DNA of 8,278 nucleotides from a virus (Duplodnaviria; Heunggongvirae; Uroviricota; Caudoviricetes). Positions 1-8,278 of this stretch are shown piece after piece. Location: positions 1 through 8,278 of IMG/VR virus record IMGVR_UViG_2778261641_000012; one strand, 5' to 3'. A program made the position numbers and the translations under genes. The first letter of the stretch is position 1; every line of letters begins with the position of its first letter. Below the pieces are notes generated by a model. It was not told the DNA's origin. It did not search any database and was given only the letters and a program-made list of their open reading frames with translations.

Positions 1-258
1 ATGCAAACCGTTATTTTTGGTCGTCCGGGTTGCCCTTACTGTGTGCGTGCAAAAGATCTGGCTGAGAAATTGAGCAATGAACGCGATGATTTTCAGTATC
101 AGTATGTAGATATTCGTGCGGAAGGGATCACTAAAGAAGATCTACAACAAAAGGCAGGTAAACCCGTAGAAACCGTGCCGCAGATTTTTGTCGATCAGCA
201 ACATATCGGCGGCTATACCGATTTTGCTGCATGGGTGAAAGAAAATCTGGACGCCTGA
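1..258 (+). CDS. grxA: Glutaredoxin 1 (85 aa), complete
   Basis: The 85-aa ORF contains the CPYC active-site motif (GRPGCPYCVRAKDL) and matches E. coli Grx1 almost residue for residue as I recall it. It is followed by a hairpin plus T-run, and has the expected neighbour ybjM convergent downstream. Confidence 0.95.
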   Translation: MQTVIFGRPGCPYCVRAKDLAEKLSNERDDFQYQYVDIRAEGITKEDLQQKAGKPVETVPQIFVDQQHIGGYTDFAAWVKENLDA

Positions 259-267
259 TCGTCTGAC

Positions 268-300
268 AAGCCCTCGCGTTGAGGGCTTTACTGATTTTTT
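268..300 (+). terminator. Probable rho-independent terminator of grxA
   Basis: An 8-bp stem AAGCCCTC (268-275) pairs with GAGGGCTT (281-288) around a 5-nt loop, followed by TTTTTT at 295-300. The stem overlaps the last codons of convergent ybjM; the T-run is only on the plus strand, so it is unidirectional for grxA. Confidence 0.5.
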
Positions 301-665
301 CTGTGCTGTGGTTTAAACAAACTACTGATAAATAAGAAACACAGTGCCCCCAGCGCACACCAGAACACCGCGCTTAGTAACCATGCCAGCTCTTGCCAGA
401 ATGAGCGCGTCGGTGAAAAAAACAGCCGCATAATGAGCATCGAACAGGGTGCCGCCAGCATTGCGCCAAACAGAGGTTTCAGGACTTCTCTACGCTGTGA
501 AAAGAAGCTGGCGACTGCTCCAGGAAGAATGAAAAATAGCAAGCCGATTTCAGGATGCCCGGCAGCCCGAAAAGCGCCTTTCATGTGCGTCGCCAGAAAA
601 AGGCACACCACAATGAAGAGGACAAAACAGCAGATTGCCCCCGCCCAACGTTGTTTATGTTTCAC
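288..665 (-). CDS. ybjM: Small inner-membrane protein YbjM (125 aa)
   Basis: The 125-aa ORF is very hydrophobic, with about four predicted transmembrane segments. Its length and its position between grxA and ybjL match the E. coli ybjM locus. Function is unknown. Confidence 0.85.
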   Translation of the reverse strand: MKHKQRWAGAICCFVLFIVVCLFLATHMKGAFRAAGHPEIGLLFFILPGAVASFFSQRREVLKPLFGAMLAAPCSMLIMRLFFSPTRSFWQELAWLLSAVFWCALGALCFLFISSLFKPQHRKNQ

Positions 666-934
666 TCGTTCCTCCTGACACTGCGTCTATCGAACACATT
701 TTTCGCCAGTGTGGCGTTCAGTAAGATAAAGCCGCTTCGCATTCCATGCTAATATAGGCCAACGCAATTCATATAGCCGTTGATACCTAATGTGATTACA
801 CTAGTAAAATATATTGTTACTTTACTATCGTTTAGGTGCGCTGAATGAATCTGCGCCCTGAATTCTGGTAAAAAACATTATCGTAAATTACCATTTCTTT
901 CAACAGCTTACTAGTAAACAAGAAGTTAGCCTCC

Positions 935-2620
935 GTGAATATAAACGTCGCCGAATTGTTAAATGGGAATTACATTCTGTTATTATTTGTGGTCCTCGCG
1001 CTTGGGCTATGTCTCGGAAAGTTACGACTTGGTTCGATCCAACTGGGTAATTCCATTGGCGTTTTAGTCGTATCGCTGTTATTAGGCCAACAACATTTCA
1101 GCATTAACACCGATGCGCTTAATCTTGGCTTTATGCTGTTTATTTTCTGCGTCGGGGTCGAAGCCGGACCGAACTTTTTTTCCATTTTTTTTCGCGATGG
1201 GAAAAATTACCTAATGTTAGCACTGGTGATGGTTGGCAGTGCGCTGGTGATCGCCTTAGGGTTAGGTAAGCTGTTTGGCTGGGATATTGGCCTGACGGCC
1301 GGTATGTTAGCAGGCTCTATGACGTCGACACCGGTTCTGGTCGGTGCTGGCGATACACTGCGTCATTCCGGCATGGAAAGCAGGCAGCTCTCACTGGCAC
1401 TGGATAATCTGAGCCTCGGGTATGCCTTAACCTATTTAATCGGTCTGGTGAGTTTGATTGTTGGTGCGCGTTACTTGCCGAAATTGCAGCATCAGGACTT
1501 ACAGACCAGCGCCCAGCAAATCGCCCGCGAACGTGGCCTGGACACTGATGCCAACCGTAAGGTTTATTTACCGGTGATCCGCGCCTATCGCGTCGGCCCG
1601 GAGCTGGTGGCCTGGACCGACGGCAAAAATCTGCGTGAACTGGGTATTTATCGACAAACCGGCTGCTACATTGAACGTATTCGACGTAACGGGATTCTGG
1701 CAAATCCAGACGGTGATGCCGTGCTACAAATGGGCGATGAAATAGCGTTGGTAGGCTATCCCGACGCCCATGCCCGACTCGATCCCAGCTTCCGTAACGG
1801 TAAAGAAGTTTTCGATCGTGACCTTCTCGACATGCGTATCGTCACTGAAGAAGTGGTCGTTAAAAACCATAACGCTGTAGGTAAACGTCTCGCACAACTG
1901 AAGTTGACCGATCACGGTTGCTTCCTTAACCGCGTCATTCGTAGCCAGATTGAGATGCCGATAGATGACAACGTCGTGCTTAACAAAGGTGACGTTTTAC
2001 AAGTCAGCGGTGATGCCCGTCGCGTAAAAACCATCGCCGATCGCATCGGCTTTATCTCGATTCACAGCCAGGTCACTGACCTGCTGGCATTTTGCGCCTT
2101 CTTTGTTATTGGGCTGATGATCGGGATGATCACCTTCCAGTTCAGCACATTCAGTTTCGGCATGGGGAACGCTGCCGGGTTGTTATTCGCCGGAATTATG
2201 CTGGGCTTTATGCGTGCTAACCACCCGACCTTCGGTTACATTCCGCAAGGTGCATTAAGCATGGTGAAAGAGTTCGGCTTGATGGTGTTTATGGCAGGCG
2301 TTGGTCTGAGCGCCGGTAGCGGTATTAATAACGGCCTGGGCGCGATTGGCGGTCAGATGTTGATTGCCGGATTAATTGTCAGTCTTGTGCCCGTGGTTAT
2401 CTGTTTCTTGTTCGGTGCTTATGTATTGCGAATGAACCGCGCACTGTTGTTCGGCGCAATGATGGGCGCACGCACCTGCGCGCCGGCAATGGAGATCATC
2501 AGTGATACAGCTCGCAGTAACATCCCTGCGCTGGGCTACGCGGGCACCTACGCAATCGCCAACGTCCTGCTGACGCTGGCAGGGACAATCATCGTCATGG
2601 TATGGCCAGGATTAGGATAA
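935..2620 (+). CDS. ybjL: Putative transport protein YbjL (AAE-family transporter with two central TrkA-C/RCK_C-like domains), 561 aa
   Basis: The 561-aa ORF starts at GTG 935 with N-terminus [29 protein letters not shown], which matches E. coli YbjL as I recall it. It has duplicated membrane domains flanking a soluble central region, typical of the YbjL/YidE/AspT family. Confidence 0.93.
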
Positions 2621-2732
2621 AACTGAAGTTGCCCTGAAAATGAAATTTTTTTGCACAACCGCAGAACTTTTCCGCAGGGCATCAGTCTTAATTAGTGCCA
2701 CTGCTTTTCTTTGATGTCCCCATTTTGTGGAG

Positions 2733-2778
2733 CCCATCAACCCCGCCATTTCGGTTCAAGGTTGATGGGTTTTTTGTT
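2733..2778 (+). terminator. Candidate terminator downstream of ybjL (or structured element at the prophage/host junction)
   Basis: A perfect 10-bp inverted repeat CCCATCAACC (2733-2742) / GGTTGATGGG (2760-2769) around a 17-nt loop is followed by TTTTTTGTT (2770-2778). The U-tract is on the plus strand only. Confidence 0.45.
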
Positions 2779-2855
2779 GCCTGAAATTTATGCTTTTTAA
2801 AATCATGATGTTAGACGCACTGTTTTTTAATGATGGCGACAAATTGGCGGCAGAG

Positions 2856-3074
2856 TCAAAGAGAGAGCGCCCCCTGTCCTGATTTCATTGGATGCGGCTG
2901 AACCGGATTTGACTCTTTTGGCGTTGCAATCGAACGAACAAAAGTTTCATGGGTTACAAAAGTATGGCTGCAGTTAATATTCTGGCACTGGTTGTAACGC
3001 TCTTTGGTCAATGAAGATACCTGAAAACTGCTGCGAGTATGGGCGGCACTTCCACACAGTGGGCAAATCATCAT
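2856..3074 (-). CDS. ogr: Ogr/Delta-family zinc-finger late-gene transcription activator (about 72 aa from the ATG at 3074; the ORF track extends to 3107)
   Basis: It has the Cys4 pattern CPLC...N17...CQNINC and aligns with P2 Ogr as I recall it (MFHCPLCQHAAHARTS...KERYHQCQNVNCSATF). The ATG doublet at 3074/3071 is preceded by GGGGAG 9-11 nt upstream. The track start at 3107 has no SD and would lie upstream of the predicted promoter -10. Confidence 0.85.
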   Translation of the reverse strand: MMICPLCGSAAHTRSSFQVSSLTKERYNQCQNINCSHTFVTHETFVRSIATPKESNPVQPHPMKSGQGALSL

Positions 3075-3111
3075 TTTTCGAGTTCTCCCCATTTTTGCTA
3101 AATTCACAATA

Positions 3112-3139
3112 ATGATACCGCATTATTCCATTTTGCAAA
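3112..3139 (-). promoter_or_regulatory. Candidate sigma70 promoter for ogr
   Basis: On the minus strand, -35 TTTGCA (3139-3134), a 16-nt spacer, and -10 TATCAT (3117-3112). This puts the transcription start about 30 nt upstream of the 3074 ATG. Sequence-only prediction. Confidence 0.35.
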
Positions 3140-3164
3140 CTTAAAAGTTCTCCATTGCGAAGAA

Positions 3165-4265
3165 TCATTCCATTTCGAAATCATCAATCCTCACTTCAAG
3201 CTCCAGACTGGTCGTAAAACCATTATCCGGGCTGACGGTATGTGTCAGAGTCGTAATGGTCCATTCCGCATCATCTATCGGCTGTTTAAAACCACTGACC
3301 TTCACAGGCATTTCCGTGTAGAGATCTGCCCGCCCTTCTGCCAGTTGTAGAGAAAATGACGCAACGCCGCGTTGCAGGCGTTCCCACTGCATTTTCGCCG
3401 CTCGTTCGGCGTTGCTCCGGTTGGCATAAGTGCGATTAAGTACCAGCACGTTTTCATCCGTACCCACCAGGTAATCGCCCTGCTTCGCTTCTGGCTCTTT
3501 CTTCTGCTTCTTAGTTCTGCGCTTACGCTTCACCGTGGTGCTTTCTTTCTTCGCAGGTTCGCGGGTATGCAACCAGCTGGCAATTACGCCCGTGTAGGCT
3601 CCGCGATCTGCCAGGGTAAAGCGGTGACTGTCGCCGTCCTTACGTGTGATAGTGATCACCGGCAGTGGTTTACCGCTAGCACTTTTACCCTGTCCCTGCC
3701 GGATGAATAACAGATTGCCATTTTTCACCGACGCAATAGCACCGTACTGGCGCGCCAGCCGCATCAGAAAACTGCCGTCACTCTCATTAGTCTGGTCTAT
3801 ATGCTCCACAGGCTTATCCGACAGGTCTTTACCCAGTGCCATCTTCAGCTTGTGACGTACGGCTATTTCCTTCACTACTTCCCCGACGGTGGTCTTGTGC
3901 CACGACTTTTCACGGCGGGTATTCAGCGTTTCACGAAAATCAGCACTTCGCGCCCGAATAGTCAGGCGGTCCGGTGCGCCAGTGTGTTCAATCTCGTCCA
4001 CCGTGAATGCCCCTTTCGGGAAAAGCGGCTGCCCCTTCCAGCCCAGCGCCAGCGTAATGACCGCACCACGGCGCGGCAGCACGATTTTTCCGTCGGCGTC
4101 GTCCAGCTCCAGATCAAGCTGGTCCGCTTCAAAGCCCCGATTGTCCGTCAGCGTCAGACTCATCAGACGGTTATCCAGCACAGTGGTGATATCCCTGCCC
4201 TCAATACTGATACTGAATGCCGGAGTTTTGTTGCCTTTGTTAAGCAGTTCAGAGCTGAAATTCAT
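3165..4265 (-). CDS. D: Phage late control gene D family tail protein (P2 gpD-like), 366 aa
   Basis: Its length and position (immediately upstream of ogr and downstream of U) match P2 D. The protein has the lysine-rich internal stretch typical of gpD proteins. Its start overlaps the U stop in an ATGA junction at 4262-4265. Confidence 0.88.
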   Translation of the reverse strand: MNFSSELLNKGNKTPAFSISIEGRDITTVLDNRLMSLTLTDNRGFEADQLDLELDDADGKIVLPRRGAVITLALGWKGQPLFPKGAFTVDEIEHTGAPDRLTIRARSADFRETLNTRREKSWHKTTVGEVVKEIAVRHKLKMALGKDLSDKPVEHIDQTNESDGSFLMRLARQYGAIASVKNGNLLFIRQGQGKSASGKPLPVITITRKDGDSHRFTLADRGAYTGVIASWLHTREPAKKESTTVKRKRRTKKQKKEPEAKQGDYLVGTDENVLVLNRTYANRSNAERAAKMQWERLQRGVASFSLQLAEGRADLYTEMPVKVSGFKQPIDDAEWTITTLTHTVSPDNGFTTSLELEVRIDDFEME

Positions 4266-4747
4266 GACAGCAGCCCTCCCACCGTTTTACTGATATCGCT
4301 TAAGGCAGATGTTGCCATGTCCTGCAGATTATTCAGCTGCGCACTGAGATCACCAAACATATCGGACAGGGATTCATCCACCCGTTTGAGCGACAGGGTG
4401 AACTCAATCCGGCGCGGCATACCGTCGCGGAAAAACTCCGTTTTGGTCTGATTCAGTCCCTCAATCACATACATGCCGTAAATCGTGCCGCTGCCTTCAA
4501 TCAGGGGCCATGCTTTCCCCTGCTCTGCCATCTGCTCCAGTGCCAGCAATGACAGCCTGCCGCCTGTTATCTCCGGCATAAGAACACCAGAAAGCGTCAG
4601 CATGTCGTTGTCCGGTCCCAGAAACTGCGTGGATGGACGACGATTTACCCGACTGTTAGCCGCATGTCGCCAGCTGCGCTGATACTGCAGTTCCTGATAC
4701 GGCACGGTGCGCAGCATAAACACGTACAATCCCAGCACCATCATCAT
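4262..4747 (-). CDS. U: Phage tail protein U (P2 gpU-like), 161 aa
   Basis: Size (P2 gpU is about 160 aa as I recall) and position between T and D fit. It is translationally coupled at both ends by ATGA overlaps (4744-4747 and 4262-4265). Confidence 0.85.
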   Translation of the reverse strand: MMMVLGLYVFMLRTVPYQELQYQRSWRHAANSRVNRRPSTQFLGPDNDMLTLSGVLMPEITGGRLSLLALEQMAEQGKAWPLIEGSGTIYGMYVIEGLNQTKTEFFRDGMPRRIEFTLSLKRVDESLSDMFGDLSAQLNNLQDMATSALSDISKTVGGLLS

Positions 4748-5868
4748 GCGTCGTATCCCCCCTGATCGCTGTAGTTACTCCTGGCTTTTGCCTTCAGCCT
4801 GCGTTCACGTTCATCAAGCTGGCGGGCCACCTCCCGCGCAATATCCTGCGCACTTTGTCCTGGCTGCGTCTGAATGATGATCTGCGTCGGTGCCTCAATC
4901 CGTTGAACGGGCGGCACAGTGGCTGCACGACTCACCATCGCTTCGCCGCCTTTCGCGGGAAGTGCCAAAGGATGTAACGGTGGAAGCTCTGTAGGCGCGG
5001 CAGCAACGCCCATCATTTCGGCAACAACCGCAGCCAGTGCAGCGGTATTTCTCCGGCTGGTCACGTTTGCCGGGCCGTTGACAATTTCCGGCCCGTTTTC
5101 ACCGACGATGCCAAACTGCCCGCGCGGGATATAGCCGCCGCTGTCATACATCCCCGCAAAGCCATATCCCCATGACGGAAAACCACCCGATGGCATCATC
5201 ACTTTACCGTCTGCATTCACCGTCGCAGGTTGCTGACGCGTCACGCTTTCCGGCAGTTTCGCCTTTGCGGCCTCTTTACTGACAATGCCGAGCTTCTCCA
5301 GCAACCAGGAAACGCCGGATTTCAGTGAGTCCAGCGGATGCATGACCATATTCAGCCCTTCCGCCAGTGCCTCCCCGAATCGCCGCCCCATTGCCGCTGC
5401 ACTCTGCAGTTCGGCAGAGGTCGACTTAACGGGCGTCAGCAGATCAGTAAACCAGCCCCACAGCGCCTGCACTTTGTCGCCAATCCACTGAAACACAGGC
5501 TTAAGTGGTTCGAATGCAGCACTGATGGGACCTGCCGCCGCTTTGAATCCTTCCACCACGCCACCGAGAAATGCGGTGATGGGTTGCCAGTATTTCCAGA
5601 CAACCAGCGCCACGCCCGCCAGTGCAGTAACCACAAGACCTATCGGACTGAGCAGAGCACCTACCAGCGTTGAATCTTCAGTCAGATCGGTAAGCAGCCA
5701 GATTTCTGGTGCGGTTAATAAATGAGGTTGAGCTGGGTTCAGCTTGTTCCGCAGAATCTGCACATTCATGCCTGCACGTTCTGCCAGTTGCACCAGGTTG
5801 TGGCGCAGTGCGAATGCACGACAGGCTTCATCAAAATGTGGATGTTTGGAAACTTGGTAATCAAACAT
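4744..5868 (-). CDS. Chimeric ORF (374 aa from ATG 5868): N-terminal ~70 aa like the HTH domain of a CII-type early regulator (186 CII / Phage_CP76 type), fused in frame to a C-terminal tail tape-measure (gpT-like) fragment. Probable deletion-fusion product.
   Basis: The N-terminus [49 protein letters not shown]...LTEDSTLV matches the CII-like regulator N-terminus as I recall it. The rest is Ala/Gly-rich with a hydrophobic segment, typical of tape-measure proteins, and ends in an ATGA overlap with U exactly as T does in P2. At 374 aa it is far shorter than a full tape measure (about 800 aa in P2 as I recall). The ATG at 5868 has GGAG 9 nt upstream; the track start at 5877 is a TTG inside the SD spacer. 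Confidence 0.65.
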
Positions 5869-5932
5869 GGTTTTCAACTCCGAACTTATCGCAAAATCGA
5901 ACTCAGCGTCTTATTGTGAAAATAGACGTCTA

Positions 5933-6136
5933 TTAAGCAGACAAAGCATCAACAGTCAGAGCAGCCAGGTTAATCATTACCTTTTCACGTTTTTTGTCTT
6001 TACGAAGACGATGACGAGGTAGTCGGCCATCAGCCAACATGTCGTTAATCGTATCAATAGAAAGGCCAGTCAGTTCGCTATAACGTTCGATTGTGACATG
6101 TGGTGTATTCAGAGTAATTGAAATGTTAGGTGTCAT
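5933..6136 (-). CDS. Small HTH DNA-binding protein in the Apl/Cox position (67 aa); putative excisionase and lytic-operon regulator
   Basis: It is divergent from cI and is the first gene of the rightward early operon, directly upstream of the cII-like sequence, as apl is in 186. The motif [24 protein letters not shown] resembles an excisionase/AlpA-type HTH. AGGA lies 10 nt upstream of ATG 6136. The family assignment is positional and motif-based only. Confidence 0.5.
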
Positions 6137-6225
6137 AAGGCAACATTCCTTCTAGATATGGCTTGTGGCGAGCCGTTGTTTGTCGTGATTAGTAGTGAAG
6201 GCTCCAAAAGAACACTTCTGGTTCA

Positions 6226-6254
6226 ACTTTAAGATCGCTTTTGGAATCTGTCAA
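6226..6254 (-). promoter_or_regulatory. Candidate early lytic promoter (pR-like) for the apl-like / cII' operon
   Basis: On the minus strand, a consensus -35 TTGACA (6254-6249), a 17-nt spacer, and -10 TAAAGT (6231-6226). It lies between the cI start and the apl-like start and is embedded in TTTTGGA repeat motifs. Confidence 0.4.
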
Positions 6255-6281
6255 CGAATTTTGGATTTCTTTGGAGGACTT

Positions 6282-6851
6282 GTGGATTTCAATAGCGGCG
6301 GTAAGAAAGCCATAGAACGTTTAGTTGAAGCATATGGGTTCGGTACCCGTCAGGCTCTCTGTGATCATTTAGGTGTTTCTAAGAGCACCATGGCAACGCG
6401 CTATATGCGTGATATTTTTCCAGCAGATTGGGTAATCCAGTGCGCCCTTGAAACGGGCACCTCGCTTAATTGGCTAACAACAGGGCATGGTTCAAAGCAA
6501 GCATCAGCAAATACAAATACTATAGAAGTAGAAAAATATTTATTGTCTGATGGAGCATTGCAGAAAGACGGTTTTTATATTTTTGATAAGGGATTTCTAC
6601 CCTCTACGTTTAAAAAACCTTTTGTCATCACAGATAACAATTCTGAATTTATTTGTGATAAAGAATTTGATGATATACGTGATGGTAAATGGGTAATAAG
6701 TATTGATGGCGAAATAACGATCCGTGACATTACTCGTTTACCCGGTGGAAGAATCTTCGTCGAGGGTGGAAACAGAGCCTTCGAATGCAAGATAGAAGAC
6801 ATTGAAATAATTGGTAAAATTATAAGTTTAACAGTCAAGTATGTTAAATAG
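6282..6851 (+). CDS. cI: 186-type CI immunity repressor (about 190 aa from GTG 6282; the ORF track extends to 6195)
   Basis: It aligns along its whole length with coliphage 186 CI as I recall it: LVEAYGF vs ICEAYGF, CALETGTSLNWLTTGHG vs CALETGANLQWLLTGEG, FDKGFLP vs FDTSFLP, and WVISIDGEITIRDITRLPGGRIFVEGGNRAFECKIEDIEIIGKII vs WLVDIEGAISIRELTKLPGRKLHVAGGKVPFECGIDDIKTLGRVV. GTG 6282 is preceded by GGAGGA (6273-6278), though the spacing is short. The longer ORF from 6195 would overlap the pR-like promoter. Confidence 0.8.
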   Translation: MDFNSGGKKAIERLVEAYGFGTRQALCDHLGVSKSTMATRYMRDIFPADWVIQCALETGTSLNWLTTGHGSKQASANTNTIEVEKYLLSDGALQKDGFYIFDKGFLPSTFKKPFVITDNNSEFICDKEFDDIRDGKWVISIDGEITIRDITRLPGGRIFVEGGNRAFECKIEDIEIIGKIISLTVKYVK

Positions 6852-6866
6852 TACCGGGAGGAAACT

Positions 6867-7058
6867 ATGCTTGGTAAGGTATTTTTTGTGGTTTTGTCAT
6901 GTTCTTTGTTATTAAACCCACTAACTACCTATGCTAGAAATTATCCCTGCTCAGGGAAAAAGGGAGGTGTTTCTCACTGTACCTCAGATGGCAAATTCGT
7001 TTGCAATGATGGAACTATTAGTAAATCCAAAAAAATCTGTACTAAAAACTCACGATAA
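6867..7058 (+). CDS. Hypothetical small exported cysteine-rich basic peptide (63-aa precursor; predicted mature peptide about 40 aa with 4 Cys)
   Basis: A strong RBS GGGAGGA lies 4-5 nt before ATG 6867, which is 16 nt after the cI stop. The N-terminus [23 protein letters not shown] looks like a signal peptide with a possible signal peptidase I site after TYA. The mature part [40 protein letters not shown] has 4 Cys and net charge about +7. The region is AT-rich. I do not recognise a family. Confidence 0.5.
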
Positions 7059-7193
7059 CTTTTGCTTTTATATCTGCGTCTAAAATAAAAATGAGCCGCA
7101 TGTTAACCGCAAAAGTTACATGCTCACATAGCAAAAAGAATAGCCAACTTCATTATGGCTTCAGTGAGATGTATGGTCGTAGGATTTCATACA

Positions 7194-7222
7194 TTGACAC
7201 TGGTTATACATACAGTAAAAAT
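7194..7222 (+). promoter_or_regulatory. Candidate promoter upstream of int
   Basis: Consensus -35 TTGACA (7194-7199), a 16-nt spacer, and an A/T-rich -10 TAAAAA (7216-7221). GGAGGG (7233-7238) lies 8 nt before the int ATG at 7247. Sequence-only prediction. Confidence 0.35.
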
Positions 7223-7246
7223 GCTCTCTACTGGAGGGCATTTTTT

Positions 7247-8278
7247 ATGGCAGTACGAAAACTCACCACAGGGAAATGGCTTTGCGAATGTTACCCCGCC
7301 GGAAGAAGTGGGCGTCGTGTGCGTAAACAATTCGCCACCAAAGGCGAAGCTCTGGCTTTTGAGCGTCACACGATGGAAGAAACCGAATCAAAGCCCTGGC
7401 TGGGCGAATCAGTGGATCGTCGAACCCTGAAAGACGTGGTTGAGCTATGGTTCAAATTACATGGTAAATCTCTGACTGCTGGGCAGCATGTCTATGACAA
7501 ATTGCTGCTGATGGTTGACGCTCTAGGCAATCCTCTTGCAACCAATCTCACCTCTAAAATGTTTGCCCACTATCGAGATAAACGCCTGACAGGTGAGATC
7601 TACTTCAGCGAGAAATGGAAGAAAGGAGCCAGCCCGGTCACCATTAACCTGGAGCAAAGCTATCTAAGTAGTGTTTTTAGCGAACTATCCCGCCTGGGCG
7701 AATGGTCGTATCCAAACCCACTGGAGAACATGCGAAAATTCACCATCGCAGAAAAAGAGATGGCATGGCTTACCCATGAGCAGATTGTTGAATTGCTGGC
7801 TGATTGCAAACGTCAGGACCCAATTCTGGCACTGGTAGTTAAGATATGCTTAAGCACAGGCGCACGTTGGCGTGAAGCCGTAAATCTTACCCGCTCACAG
7901 GTGACCAAATACCGAATTACCTTTGTAAGAACGAAGGGGAAGAAAAACAGAAGCATCCCTATCAGTAAAGAGCTTTACGAAGAGATCATGGCGCTTGATG
8001 GGTTCAATTTCTTTACAGACTGCTATTTTCAATTTTTATCCGTGATGGAAAAAACGTCTATCGTGCTCCCTCGCGGTCAACTGACACACGTTCTGCGCCA
8101 TACGTTTGCGGCGCACTTCATGATGTCGGGTGGAAATATCCTGGCCTTACAAAAAATTCTCGGGCATCACGATATAAAAATGACTATGCGTTACGCACAT
8201 CTGGCACCGGATCACCTGGAAACTGCATTACGGTTTAATCCGCTGGCAACACTACCAACATCAATAGCAAGTTTTTGA
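7247..8278 (+). CDS. int: Tyrosine site-specific integrase, P2 Int family (343 aa from ATG 7247; the track ORF from 7091 is an unsupported N-terminal extension)
   Basis: It has the conserved blocks LSTGARWREA, HVLRHTFAAHFMMSGGNILALQKILGH and MRYAHLAP (catalytic Tyr), which align with P2 Int (GARWGEA, LRHSFATHFM, LQRILGH, MVYAHFAP) as I recall it. A good SD precedes 7247. The stop codon is at 8276-8278, so the gene is complete in the window. Confidence 0.9.
   Translation: MAVRKLTTGKWLCECYPAGRSGRRVRKQFATKGEALAFERHTMEETESKPWLGESVDRRTLKDVVELWFKLHGKSLTAGQHVYDKLLLMVDALGNPLATNLTSKMFAHYRDKRLTGEIYFSEKWKKGASPVTINLEQSYLSSVFSELSRLGEWSYPNPLENMRKFTIAEKEMAWLTHEQIVELLADCKRQDPILALVVKICLSTGARWREAVNLTRSQVTKYRITFVRTKGKKNRSIPISKELYEEIMALDGFNFFTDCYFQFLSVMEKTSIVLPRGQLTHVLRHTFAAHFMMSGGNILALQKILGHHDIKMTMRYAHLAPDHLETALRFNPLATLPTSIASF

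Follow-up and report, generated by a model that had tools for sequence, protein, structure and literature searches.

Does an undamaged repressor switch inside a prophage that has lost nearly everything else show that the host has kept it for protection, or can it be explained by the history of the deletion itself? This question is raised by a window of 8,278 nt (the whole stretch of DNA that was analyzed), in which positions 5933-6851 run exactly from the stop codon of an apl-like gene to the stop codon of a cI gene facing the other way. A sequence-only reading had described this segment as a 186-type immunity switch within a mosaic remnant of P2-type architecture, possibly retained because it protects the host against superinfecting 186-like phages. 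Our analysis leads us to a plainer view, to which we assign a probability of roughly 0.8, namely, that a temperate phage of the 186 type has left its whole lysogeny module at this locus, within a nonviable remnant that arose through one or a few recent internal deletions.

Results

Repressor, partner gene, and integrase

The GTG codon at 6282 is the likely start of cI, as it is preceded by GGAGG (6273-6277) and yields the 189 aa annotated in relatives. The protein carries both an N-terminal helix-turn-helix domain (PF07022, E=3.3e-31, profile positions 2-64 of 65) and a C-terminal oligomerization domain (PF16452, E=4.7e-29, profile positions 2-100 of 101). It aligns colinearly with 186 CI at 33% identity over residues 11-183, reaching 186 CI residues 14-187, and it matches PDB entry 2FJR over residues 10-183 (E=1.5e-31) as well as the 14-mer structure of the C-terminal domain, 2FKD. 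The P2 C repressor, in contrast, is a 99-aa single-domain protein of other origin, and the earlier identification of a full-length 186-type CI rather than P2 C is borne out. A RecA-type autocleavage of CI was considered and rejected, the Peptidase_S24 match being below threshold (E=0.009, 16 bits versus a 23.3-bit cutoff). Seven dimers of 186 CI assemble into a wheel, which wraps the operator DNA (PMC3675496); judged from domain homology, and at only 33% identity, the CI of the remnant would probably form a similar oligomeric wheel.

Along its whole length, the apl-like product matches phrog_575, annotated as "Cox-like excisionase and repressor" (E=1e-29), and it is 91 to 96% identical to "Cox" proteins of related phages, while its direct match to 186 Apl is weak. 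With cII (PF06892) following it, the gene set of a 186-type switch, an Apl/Cox-type gene and then CII, is present. The integrase is 55% identical to 186 Int over its full length and 35% identical to P2 Int. The alignment with 186 Int reveals no frameshift, CI aligns with its 186 counterpart from end to end, and the switch is 100% identical to that of relatives; as the sequence-only reading had stated, cI, its apl-like partner, the intergenic region, and int are undamaged.

Gene order, integration site, and relatives

As read from the sequence, the element has the order attL-(orf89)-int-ydcA-like-cI, then pL/pR, then apl-cII'::'T-U-D-ogr-attR (coordinates in Table 1), which on comparison with the annotated 186 genome (NC_001317) is the 186 gene order minus ~29 kb. 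The proposal of P2-type architecture had been based on ogr being the neighbor of D on the att-proximal side. Since the orders of 186 (D-pB-B-tB-attP-orf69-int-cI-pR/pL-apl-cII) and P2 (D-ogr-attP-int-C-cox) have the D-ogr/B-att arrangement in common, the position of ogr does not discriminate between the two phages, and neither this general layout (T-U-D-ogr-att-int-repressor-cox) nor convergent promoters set P2 apart. The D, U, and Ogr proteins are equally far from both (about 48 to 57% identity; Ogr is 54% identical to 186 B and 51% identical to P2 Ogr). P2 differs from the element in having neither cII nor fil and in its arm sites (tgTGGaCa), whereas the arm repeats here, ctGCCGCCAATT/tGTCGCCA, fit both the 186-type Int arm consensus tgccGCCActt (PMC3448106) and the YAYCGCCAYTY of the annotated 186 genome. 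Repeats of the same family are also found on the attL side (7237-7256 of a contig carrying an identical remnant).

Judged by its sequence, the remnant is a 186-type prophage of the PhiECO1/2/3 family, and its insertion site, between ybjL and rcdA, is the 3' end of rybB. On the other contig, the identical remnant is flanked by a 27-nt direct repeat, 85% identical between its copies (7116-7142 and 13078-13104); the attL copy lies outside the window and adjoins rcdA. PhiECO1, PhiECO2, and PhiECO3 are prophages of E. coli HS, ATCC 8739, and CFT073 and belong to the Fels-2 group (Nilsson et al. 2011, PMC3448106), where the family, its integration site, and its 186-type regulatory region are described. 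Among the papers listed by literature searches on ybjL or rybB as the site of a P2-like prophage, none contains either gene name. PhiECO2 shares with the element the ybjL-rcdA site and the gene order (CI 88% and Apl 91% identical), and the same CII (WP_000460893.1) occurs in ATCC 8739 and in full-length relatives; the PhiECO prophages differ in that the element of the window is without ~29 kb. The cI-apl intergenic DNA cannot be aligned by BLAST with that of the PhiECO2 type (as in LR-27), so the element would probably represent a separate immunity class, an assignment made tentative by CI recognition helices that are alike except for one M/L exchange.

The likeness to 186 itself extends to the two-domain colinear CI, to the back-to-back placement of cI and apl with an Apl/Cox-type recombination directionality factor (RDF) as first and CII as second lytic gene, to predicted convergent promoters with the apl start codon within the pL spacer, to the common direction of cI and int, and to B/ogr-D beside att together with 186-type Int arm repeats. 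The differences are that 186 Apl has 87 aa (67 here) and is scarcely alignable, that 186 has its own CI sites in place of the candidate TTTGGA repeats, that its cI and int abut without an intervening gene where a ydcA-like gene is inserted here, that its att site is tRNA-Ile and not rybB, and that its Tum is a fused protein, whereas the full-length relatives of this family have a 62-aa open reading frame (ORF) and a separate DinI-like gene. The ydcA-like product matches NF007463 (E=5.3e-34) and phrog_6000 (E=1.9e-34), as well as PF27300 on the contig carrying the identical remnant, and its gene sits in a variable cargo slot of the cI-int operon.

TABLE 1 Features of the remnant prophage and its integration site in the 8,278-nt window
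Feature	Position	Strand	Description
rybB sRNA gene	2700-2778	+	Rfam RF00110, 105.3 bits, full-length model match; terminator holds the attachment core
attR copy of att repeat	2765-2791	-	ATAAATTTCAGGCAACAAAAAACCCAT; located in the window from the repeat on the contig with an identical remnant
Two tandem 186-type Int arm-type repeats	2834-2853	-	ctGCCGCCAATTtGTCGCCA; directly past the ogr stop codon
ogr/B late-gene activator	2856-3074	-	72 aa; PF04606, E=6.8e-22; same 219-bp CDS annotated in relatives
Tail gene D	3165-4265	-	366 aa; PF05954 on the identical gene of the contig with an identical remnant; 57% identity to 186 D
Tail gene U	4262-4747	-	161 aa; PF06995 on the contig with an identical remnant; 50% identity to 186 F
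cII'::'T fusion (deletion scar)	4744-5868	-	In frame: cII codons 1-69 plus last ~305 codons (last third) of tape-measure gene T
Deletion junction	5661-5667	n/a	7-bp overlap aligning to both cII and T (BLAST versus WCHEC050613 and the O25b:H4 prophage); exact common sequence CTA
apl/cox-like gene	5933-6136	-	67 aa; excisionase and lytic-side repressor; first gene of the pR operon
Predicted lysogenic promoter pL	6118-6146	+	TTGAAA, 17-nt spacer, CAACAT; apl start codon inside the spacer
Candidate CI operator cluster	6203-6286	n/a	TTTGGA/TCCAAA at 6203 (minus strand), 6240, 6260, 6270; degenerate copy at 6281
Dyad within candidate operator cluster	6204-6221	n/a	CCAAAAG-aaca-CTTCTGG
Predicted lytic promoter pR	6226-6254	-	TTGACA, 17-nt spacer, TAAAGT; promoter scan, 10/12 matches
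cI immunity repressor	6282-6851	+	189 aa, GTG start; mechanical ORF 6195-6851 (218 aa)
ydcA-like gene	6867-7058	+	63-aa YdcA-family small secreted Cys-rich protein; cargo of the lysogenic operon between cI and int
Tyrosine integrase (int)	7247-8278	+	343 aa; PF24624 and PF00589; window ends at the int stop codon

Extent and age of the deletion

Both halves of the cII'::'T fusion map onto the full-length prophage of an O25b:H4 strain, accession NZ_CP015085, and mapping of the window on that prophage by BLAST places the endpoints of the missing ~29 kb at cII nt ~208 and T nt ~2155. The lost segment comprises the replication genes, an SOS module, cos, the head and lysis genes, and most tail genes, which agrees with the earlier statement that the prophage is mostly deleted. 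CII is cut off at codon 69 by the deletion; the N terminus of the fusion is 75% identical to residues 1-79 of 186 CII, and its PF06892 match is confined to the N-terminal 77 profile positions.

From the junction to the end of the window (5661-8278), E. coli WCHEC050613 has the same sequence (100% identity), and the full-length O25b:H4 prophage shows 98.2% identity, with 99.8% over 5880-7250. None of 5,426 complete E. coli genomes contains the deletion junction, and the fusion protein, or the exact deletion, was found on only two or three contigs of a public collection by exact-protein look-up. Such look-ups replaced a 3-kb query at 80% coverage that was meant to count full-length versus remnant carriers of the immunity class, as this threshold failed to separate the immunity classes because the 3' half of cI is common to them. 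For the identical CI, the look-up gave 12,761 indexed blocks of the collection, and in all 10 distinct places among the matches listed, an undeleted early region is kept that reaches the morphogenesis genes or a cargo slot. Altogether, the deletion looks too recent for the switch to have decayed.

The late genes are 99.9% identical to those of a prophage bearing another immunity module. By these alignments, the actual mosaicism is the joining of late genes to differing immunity modules and not a combination of P2 and 186, and an exchange of immunity modules has already been described for this prophage group (PMC3448106).

Promoters and candidate operators

The predicted pL has the geometry of the annotated 186 pL (TTGCGA-17-CATGAT), in which the apl ATG occupies spacer positions 11-13, and the pL block is invariant among five immunity types, with a weak -10 element. 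At the predicted pR, the GTCAA core of the -35 element does not vary, and hetero-immune relatives keep the same geometry. The starts predicted for pR, at about 6219, and for pL, near 6153, face each other at a distance of ~66 bp; in 186, they are 62 bp apart.

Between the start of cI and pR +1, at the position equivalent to that of the three CI sites of 186, lies a cluster of TTTGGA repeats to which CI would probably bind, as judged from sequence. Nowhere else in the window does an 85-bp stretch hold four copies of any one hexamer, a concentration that none of 2,000 random sequences matched. Two of three hetero-immune relatives scanned have repeats of their own at the equivalent position, while PhiECO2 has no hexamer occurring three times there. 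The repeats are mostly direct, whereas those of 186 are inverted, and the ribosome-binding site of cI coincides with one copy. An inverted-repeat search of the pR region returned two weak dyads only, and the operator proposal therefore rests on the repeat cluster and not on 186-like palindromes. An Rfam scan found no RNA family within 5933-6851.

For the distal CI sites of 186, namely FL and FR, which lie ~300 bp to either side, and those at the B/ogr promoter pB, no convincing counterparts were found in the window. The heptamer TTATTGT, of which the window has just three copies, one each at a pB-, an FR-, and an FL-like position, was tried as a distal CI site but not accepted: its count is not significant (reached in 27 of 200 shuffles), the copy upstream of ogr is identical in hetero-immune relatives, and the O25b:H4 prophage of the same immunity is without the apl-cII copy. 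Two more copies of TTATTGT are present in attL.

SOS module

Neither a tum-like ORF nor an exact LexA box (CTGT-N8-ACAG) is present in the window, in line with the antirepressor absence reported before. In full-length relatives, a LexA box of this form, followed by the 62-aa ORF and the DinI-like gene, lies downstream of gene A in the segment that is deleted here, and the C-terminal half of 186 Tum shares 41% identity with the DinI-like gene. With this module deleted, the remnant would not be derepressible by an SOS pathway of its own, and a loss of SOS inducibility is plausible. The further suggestion that the switch may be locked in the repressed state is uncertain, since an antirepressor might come in trans from another prophage of the same genome or from an infecting phage.

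Discussion

Our observations lead us to propose that the switch would operate as it does in phage 186, for which a mechanistic model is available (PMC3675496, PMC7498355). By homology with 186, pL would transcribe cI, the ydcA-like gene, and int rightwards, and CI would repress the convergent pR, silencing apl and the cII'::'T-U-D transcript, while repression of pR would in turn lift transcriptional interference on pL. As CII is truncated, the establishment promoter is presumably dead, though it would not be needed for maintenance. The same CI would then repress the pR of an incoming phage with the same operators, and immunity to homo-immune phages is plausible on this analogy.

It might be argued that the switch is structurally intact and yet silent or irrelevant, CI being too weakly expressed to confer immunity now that CII and pE are lost, and that it awaits decay. 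The poor -10 element of the predicted pL (CAACAT) and the truncated cII would be in line with this. We consider such silence unlikely, as the maintenance of 186 lysogeny relies on pL alone, which CI activates by repressing pR (186 record annotation; PMC3675496), and as the pL block, invariant in five immunity types, is identical to that of full-length prophages. Less likely again is the view that the element is a mosaic of P2 and 186 and that selection has preserved its 186-type repressor as protection of the host against homo-immune 186-like phages. Such phages are extremely common in E. coli, judging from the abundance of the identical CI, so that immunity would have ecological value, and several other remnants of the family also keep int-cI-apl. 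The premise of a mosaic fails, however, as D-ogr/B-att is common to both phages and Int and its arm sites are of the 186 type, and an exact deletion with zero divergence from intact relatives that is confined to two or three contigs gives no signal of long-term maintenance. Zero divergence also means that there was no time for decay, and an intact cI therefore needs no selection. Moreover, deletions that lose cI but leave lytic genes would kill the cell, so that retention of cI is expected from survivorship alone. In our reading of a recently deleted 186-type prophage, the intact switch would thus reflect a young deletion and the survivability of only those deletions that keep cI while lytic genes remain, and it does not demonstrate selection for immunity.

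Two further explanations concern the recurrence and the possible usefulness of such remnants. The remnants of LR-27, BE2-5, and HH107 all break cII at the same nucleotide (GCGGTAT^CTGG), and the T-side breakpoints of LR-27, BE2-5, and the window lie within ~10 bp of each other; the HH107 remnant differs in its att site, its int, and its cI. These breakpoints are a hint that remnants might recur via a preferred cII-to-T deletion route, or that one old junction has spread by recombination between coresident P2-like prophages, with a minimal int-cI-apl-cII'-T'-U-D-ogr cassette maintained for immunity or another benefit, a scenario that we regard as improbable and less so only than a domestication of the cassette for a role other than immunity. 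Such a role, for which we see very little probability, might lie in the YdcA-family secreted protein, in trans-activation of P2/P4-type elements by Ogr, or in the CII'-T' fusion, and the place of the ydcA-like gene in a variable cargo slot inside the cI-int operon and the in-frame cII'::'T fusions of both the window and LR-27 could be cited in its favor. The same rarity and recency (two or three contigs, none of the 5,426 genomes) speak against it, as do the one-in-three chance of an in-frame fusion each time, the position of the fusion behind a CI-repressed pR, and the fact that we know of no function for YdcA-family proteins.

We therefore return to a recently deleted, 186-type prophage as our preferred interpretation. 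The element is an ordinary one of a type already on record, a relative of phage 186 that is very common as a prophage in E. coli, and the finding carries little weight beyond annotation: the strain carries a dead 186-type prophage remnant with its repressor module unchanged. It does correct a misconception, as P2 and 186 both have ogr/B next to D at their att ends, an arrangement that provides no evidence of a mosaic. Integration of the family into the rybB sRNA gene is among the most useful by-products of this analysis, as is a candidate operator set for an uncharacterized CI immunity class. Since a phage family that is very widespread in E. coli has exactly this repressor module, immunity of the strain to its phages is probable, and the locus would not release phage on SOS induction.

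A deletion remnant of a known prophage family

The left end of the window is E. coli chromosome, as the ORF map and family searches indicate, and the remainder is prophage. A mechanical ORF scan gives 218 aa for cI and 395 aa for int, which are over-long because no stop codon intervenes upstream; the forms annotated in relatives have 189 aa (GTG at 6282, with GGAGG 4 nt upstream) and 343 aa, respectively.

Genes of the window, with coordinates, strand, and origin
Gene	Coordinates	Strand	Origin
grxA	1-258		E. coli chromosome
ybjM	288-665	-	E. coli chromosome
ybjL	935-2620		E. coli chromosome
ogr/B	2856-3074	-	prophage remnant
D	3165-4265	-	prophage remnant
U	4262-4747	-	prophage remnant
cII'::'T fusion	4744-5868	-	prophage remnant
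Apl/Cox-like gene	5933-6136	-	prophage remnant
cI	6282-6851	+	prophage remnant
YdcA-family 63-aa ORF	6867-7058	+	prophage remnant
int	7247-8278	+	prophage remnant; int stop codon is the window end

The remnant is one of the PhiECO-type prophages, a published family whose members PhiECO1/2/3 (in E. coli HS, ATCC 8739, and CFT073) were assigned to the Fels-2 group and have a regulatory region of the 186 type (Nilsson et al. 2011, PMC3448106); the PhiECO-type prophage of ATCC 8739 was checked directly. In an O25b:H4 strain, the ybjL-rcdA locus (L004) holds an apparently complete prophage of ~35 kb with the same Apl protein and a 99% identical CI. It also has cII, fil, a Dam methylase, and replication gene A, and its head, lysis, and tail genes are P2-type. 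A LexA box (CTGT-N8-ACAG) in it precedes a 62-aa ORF and a DinI-like gene whose product is 41% identical to 186 Tum over the latter's C-terminal half. Mapped onto this locus, the window shows a single deletion of about 29 kb, which joins cII nucleotide ~208 to T nucleotide ~2155 at window positions 5661-5667, with an exact CTA common to both sides inside the 7-bp junction overlap and the fusion in frame. The remnant has lost everything that replication, packaging, lysis, and SOS induction require.

In E. coli BL21(DE3) the family is represented by another, different remnant (NZ_CP053602.1, 874997-876492, ~0.875 Mb), in which a replication-endonuclease fragment adjoins cI and cII. Several relatives with identical CI (L012-L021, about 400-4000) hold differing defence-like cargo between the DinI-like and portal genes, such as KAP NTPase, GAPS4, and SIR2 proteins or a reverse transcriptase with an AAA/SMC ATPase.

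A 186-type immunity switch

The sequence-only reading had proposed an intact switch with a full-length 186-type repressor, and this is borne out: 5933-6851 is bounded exactly by the stop codons of apl and cI, both Pfam CI domains are present (PF07022, E=3.3e-31; PF16452, E=4.7e-29), the protein matches 2FJR and 2FKD, which are crystal structures of 186 CI, and the alignment with 186 CI that had been suggested as a check gives 33% identity over residues 11-183. The divergent 67-aa protein aligns weakly with 186 Apl itself and is a full-length match to phrog_575, "Cox-like excisionase and repressor" (E=1e-29).

A promoter scan predicts pR on the minus strand (TTGACA-17-TAAAGT, 6254-6226), and pL is predicted on the plus strand (TTGAAA at 6118-6123, a 17-nt spacer, and CAACAT at 6141-6146). 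The latter reproduces the annotated 186 pL (TTGCGA-17-CATGAT), with the apl start codon at spacer positions 11-13 in both. Across five immunity types the pR and pL blocks keep their position and the DNA between and beyond them varies. About 66 bp separate the two predicted start sites, which point towards each other; the corresponding spacing in 186 is 62 bp.

In an unbiased repeated-hexamer scan, the sole 85-bp stretch of the window with any hexamer four times lies at 6191-6285, where TTTGGA/TCCAAA occurs at 6203 (minus strand), 6240, 6260, and 6270, a clustering reached in 0 of 2,000 random sequences; a dyad, CCAAAAG-aaca-CTTCTGG, lies at 6204-6221. The cluster begins just past the pR -10 and reaches the cI start codon, the place of the three CI operators of 186. 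On 186, the same scan recovered the Int arm sites and the pR region, and in two of three hetero-immune relatives it found different repeats at the same place (in PhiECO2 no hexamer reached three copies), one of them a perfect palindrome, GTACCCAATTGGGTAC, in phage vB_EcoM-813R9. We therefore propose these repeats as candidate CI operators of this immunity class. The 16-bp palindrome of 813R9 (CI 56% identical; L008, 1970-2000) lies directly downstream of the pR -10, with a further GTACCCAA copy near the cI start, and its core, CCAATTG, is similar to TCTCCCAATTGAGAGA, the pR operator of 186.

By homology with 186, CI expressed from pL would repress pR, which would silence the apl and cII'::'T-U-D transcript and relieve interference on pL, as in 186 (186 record annotation; PMC3675496). 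Counterparts of the distal 186 sites FL, FR, and pB were sought in the window and none was established. The window has just three copies of TTATTGT (3106-3112, 5911-5917, and 6540-6546), at the places where 186 has the CI sites pB, FR, and FL, and two more copies 19 bp apart lie in attL of an identical remnant (L010, 7162-7198); it was not accepted as a CI site, the count not being statistically significant and the ogr-upstream copy being conserved in hetero-immune relatives.

A terminator-like hairpin at 6158-6176 (ATGGCTTGTGGCGAGCCGT, then a T-rich run) lies where the predicted pR and pL transcripts overlap and may be part of an Apl-binding region. Its GGCTTGTGG(C/T)GAG core is kept in relatives with 96% identical Apl (813R9, KP12, and YZLc4-1, the last with an altered 3' arm) and missing in the LR-27 type, which is more divergent.

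Gene order, mosaicism, and the att site

Placement of ogr beside D at the att end had been taken as a P2 trait in a P2/186 mosaic, and neither claim holds. The order in the 186 record, G(T)-F(U)-D-pB-B-tB-attP-orf69-int-cI-pR/pL-apl-cII-fil, is that of the window, and the place of the ogr homologue is common to 186 and P2 (T-U-D-ogr-attP-int-C-cox). P2 lacks cII, which the window has; tandem repeats directly after ogr (ctGCCGCCAATTtGTCGCCA, 2834-2853) fit the 186-type arm consensus tgccGCCActt and not the P2-type tgTGGaCa; and Int is 55% identical over its full length to that of 186, versus 35% to that of P2. D, U, and Ogr are about equidistant from the two phages (48-57% identity). Mosaicism of another sort is present: 2600-5667 (ybjL end, ogr, D, U, and T') shares 99.9% identity with the YZLc4-1 prophage, whose immunity module is another one, encoding a CI of 292 aa, and 5661-8278 is 100% identical to E. 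coli WCHEC050613. Such exchange between regulatory and structural regions has been documented in this phage group (PMC3448106).

The sRNA gene rybB lies between ybjL and ogr at 2700-2778 (Rfam RF00110, 105 bits), and the att repeat (2765-2791) overlaps its terminator, indicating that PhiECO-type prophages integrate into the rybB 3' end, much as 186 integrates into a tRNA gene. None of the papers listed by our literature searches on the att site mentions rybB or ybjL. The YdcA-family ORF between cI and int, signal-peptide-like and Cys-rich, occupies a slot that is empty in 186 and that in relatives holds a 945-bp ORF (YZLc4-1) or a "chromosome segregation ATPase" (phages 813R9 and KP12); this position within the lysogenic operon seems to receive variable cargo.

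Loss of induction and retention of cI

The window contains neither a tum-like ORF nor an exact LexA box, as the sequence-only reading had noted for tum, and the LexA-controlled module of PhiECO-type relatives falls in the deleted segment. Loss of self-inducibility therefore follows soundly; that the switch is locked goes further, as an antirepressor could act in trans from another phage.

Selection for immunity had been suggested as the reason that cI was kept. The exact junction occurs in 0 of 5,426 complete E. coli genomes and the exact fusion protein in two to three contigs of the whole public collection. That collection indexes the identical CI in 12,761 blocks, and each of the 10 distinct places shown has an early region that is undeleted through gene A and continues to portal or terminase genes or into a variable cargo slot. 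The switch region shows zero divergence from relatives. With a deletion this rare and young, selection is not needed to account for the intact cI. Other remnants (LR-27, BE2-5, WCHEC050613, HH107, and BL21(DE3)) also retain int-cI-apl, as expected from survivorship, since deletions removing cI with lytic genes left would be lethal.

Deletion end-points recur. In LR-27, BE2-5, and HH107, the last located at ssrA with int and cI different from those of the window, cII is broken at one same nucleotide (GCGGTAT^CTGG). T-side breaks lie at L004 positions 35547 (LR-27 and BE2-5), 35409 (HH107), and 35555-35561 (window), those of LR-27, BE2-5, and the window being within about 10 bp of each other. 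End-points lie at 5661-5667 in the window, ~7068-7076 in L001, ~4770 in L005, and ~4636 and ~5007 in L006. The BE2-5 junction also holds a 374-bp inverted terminase-region fragment, and the fusions in both the window and LR-27 are in frame. Possible origins are a breakage hotspot or nested deletions that recombination has spread.

In the structural features that could be compared, the remnant locus agrees with the 186 switch apart from Tum, which is deleted; its pR operators are candidates, and counterparts of the distal CI sites were not established. By analogy we infer that it would work like that switch. Compared with PhiECO2, CI is 88% and Apl 91% identical; because the intergenic DNA cannot be aligned by BLAST with the PhiECO2-type remnant in LR-27, the locus probably represents a separate, uncharacterised immunity class, although the CI recognition helices of the two differ by one residue only, which leaves room for cross-immunity. 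The locus is one more member of an already published prophage family, and an incoming phage with the same operators would be repressed by the same CI.
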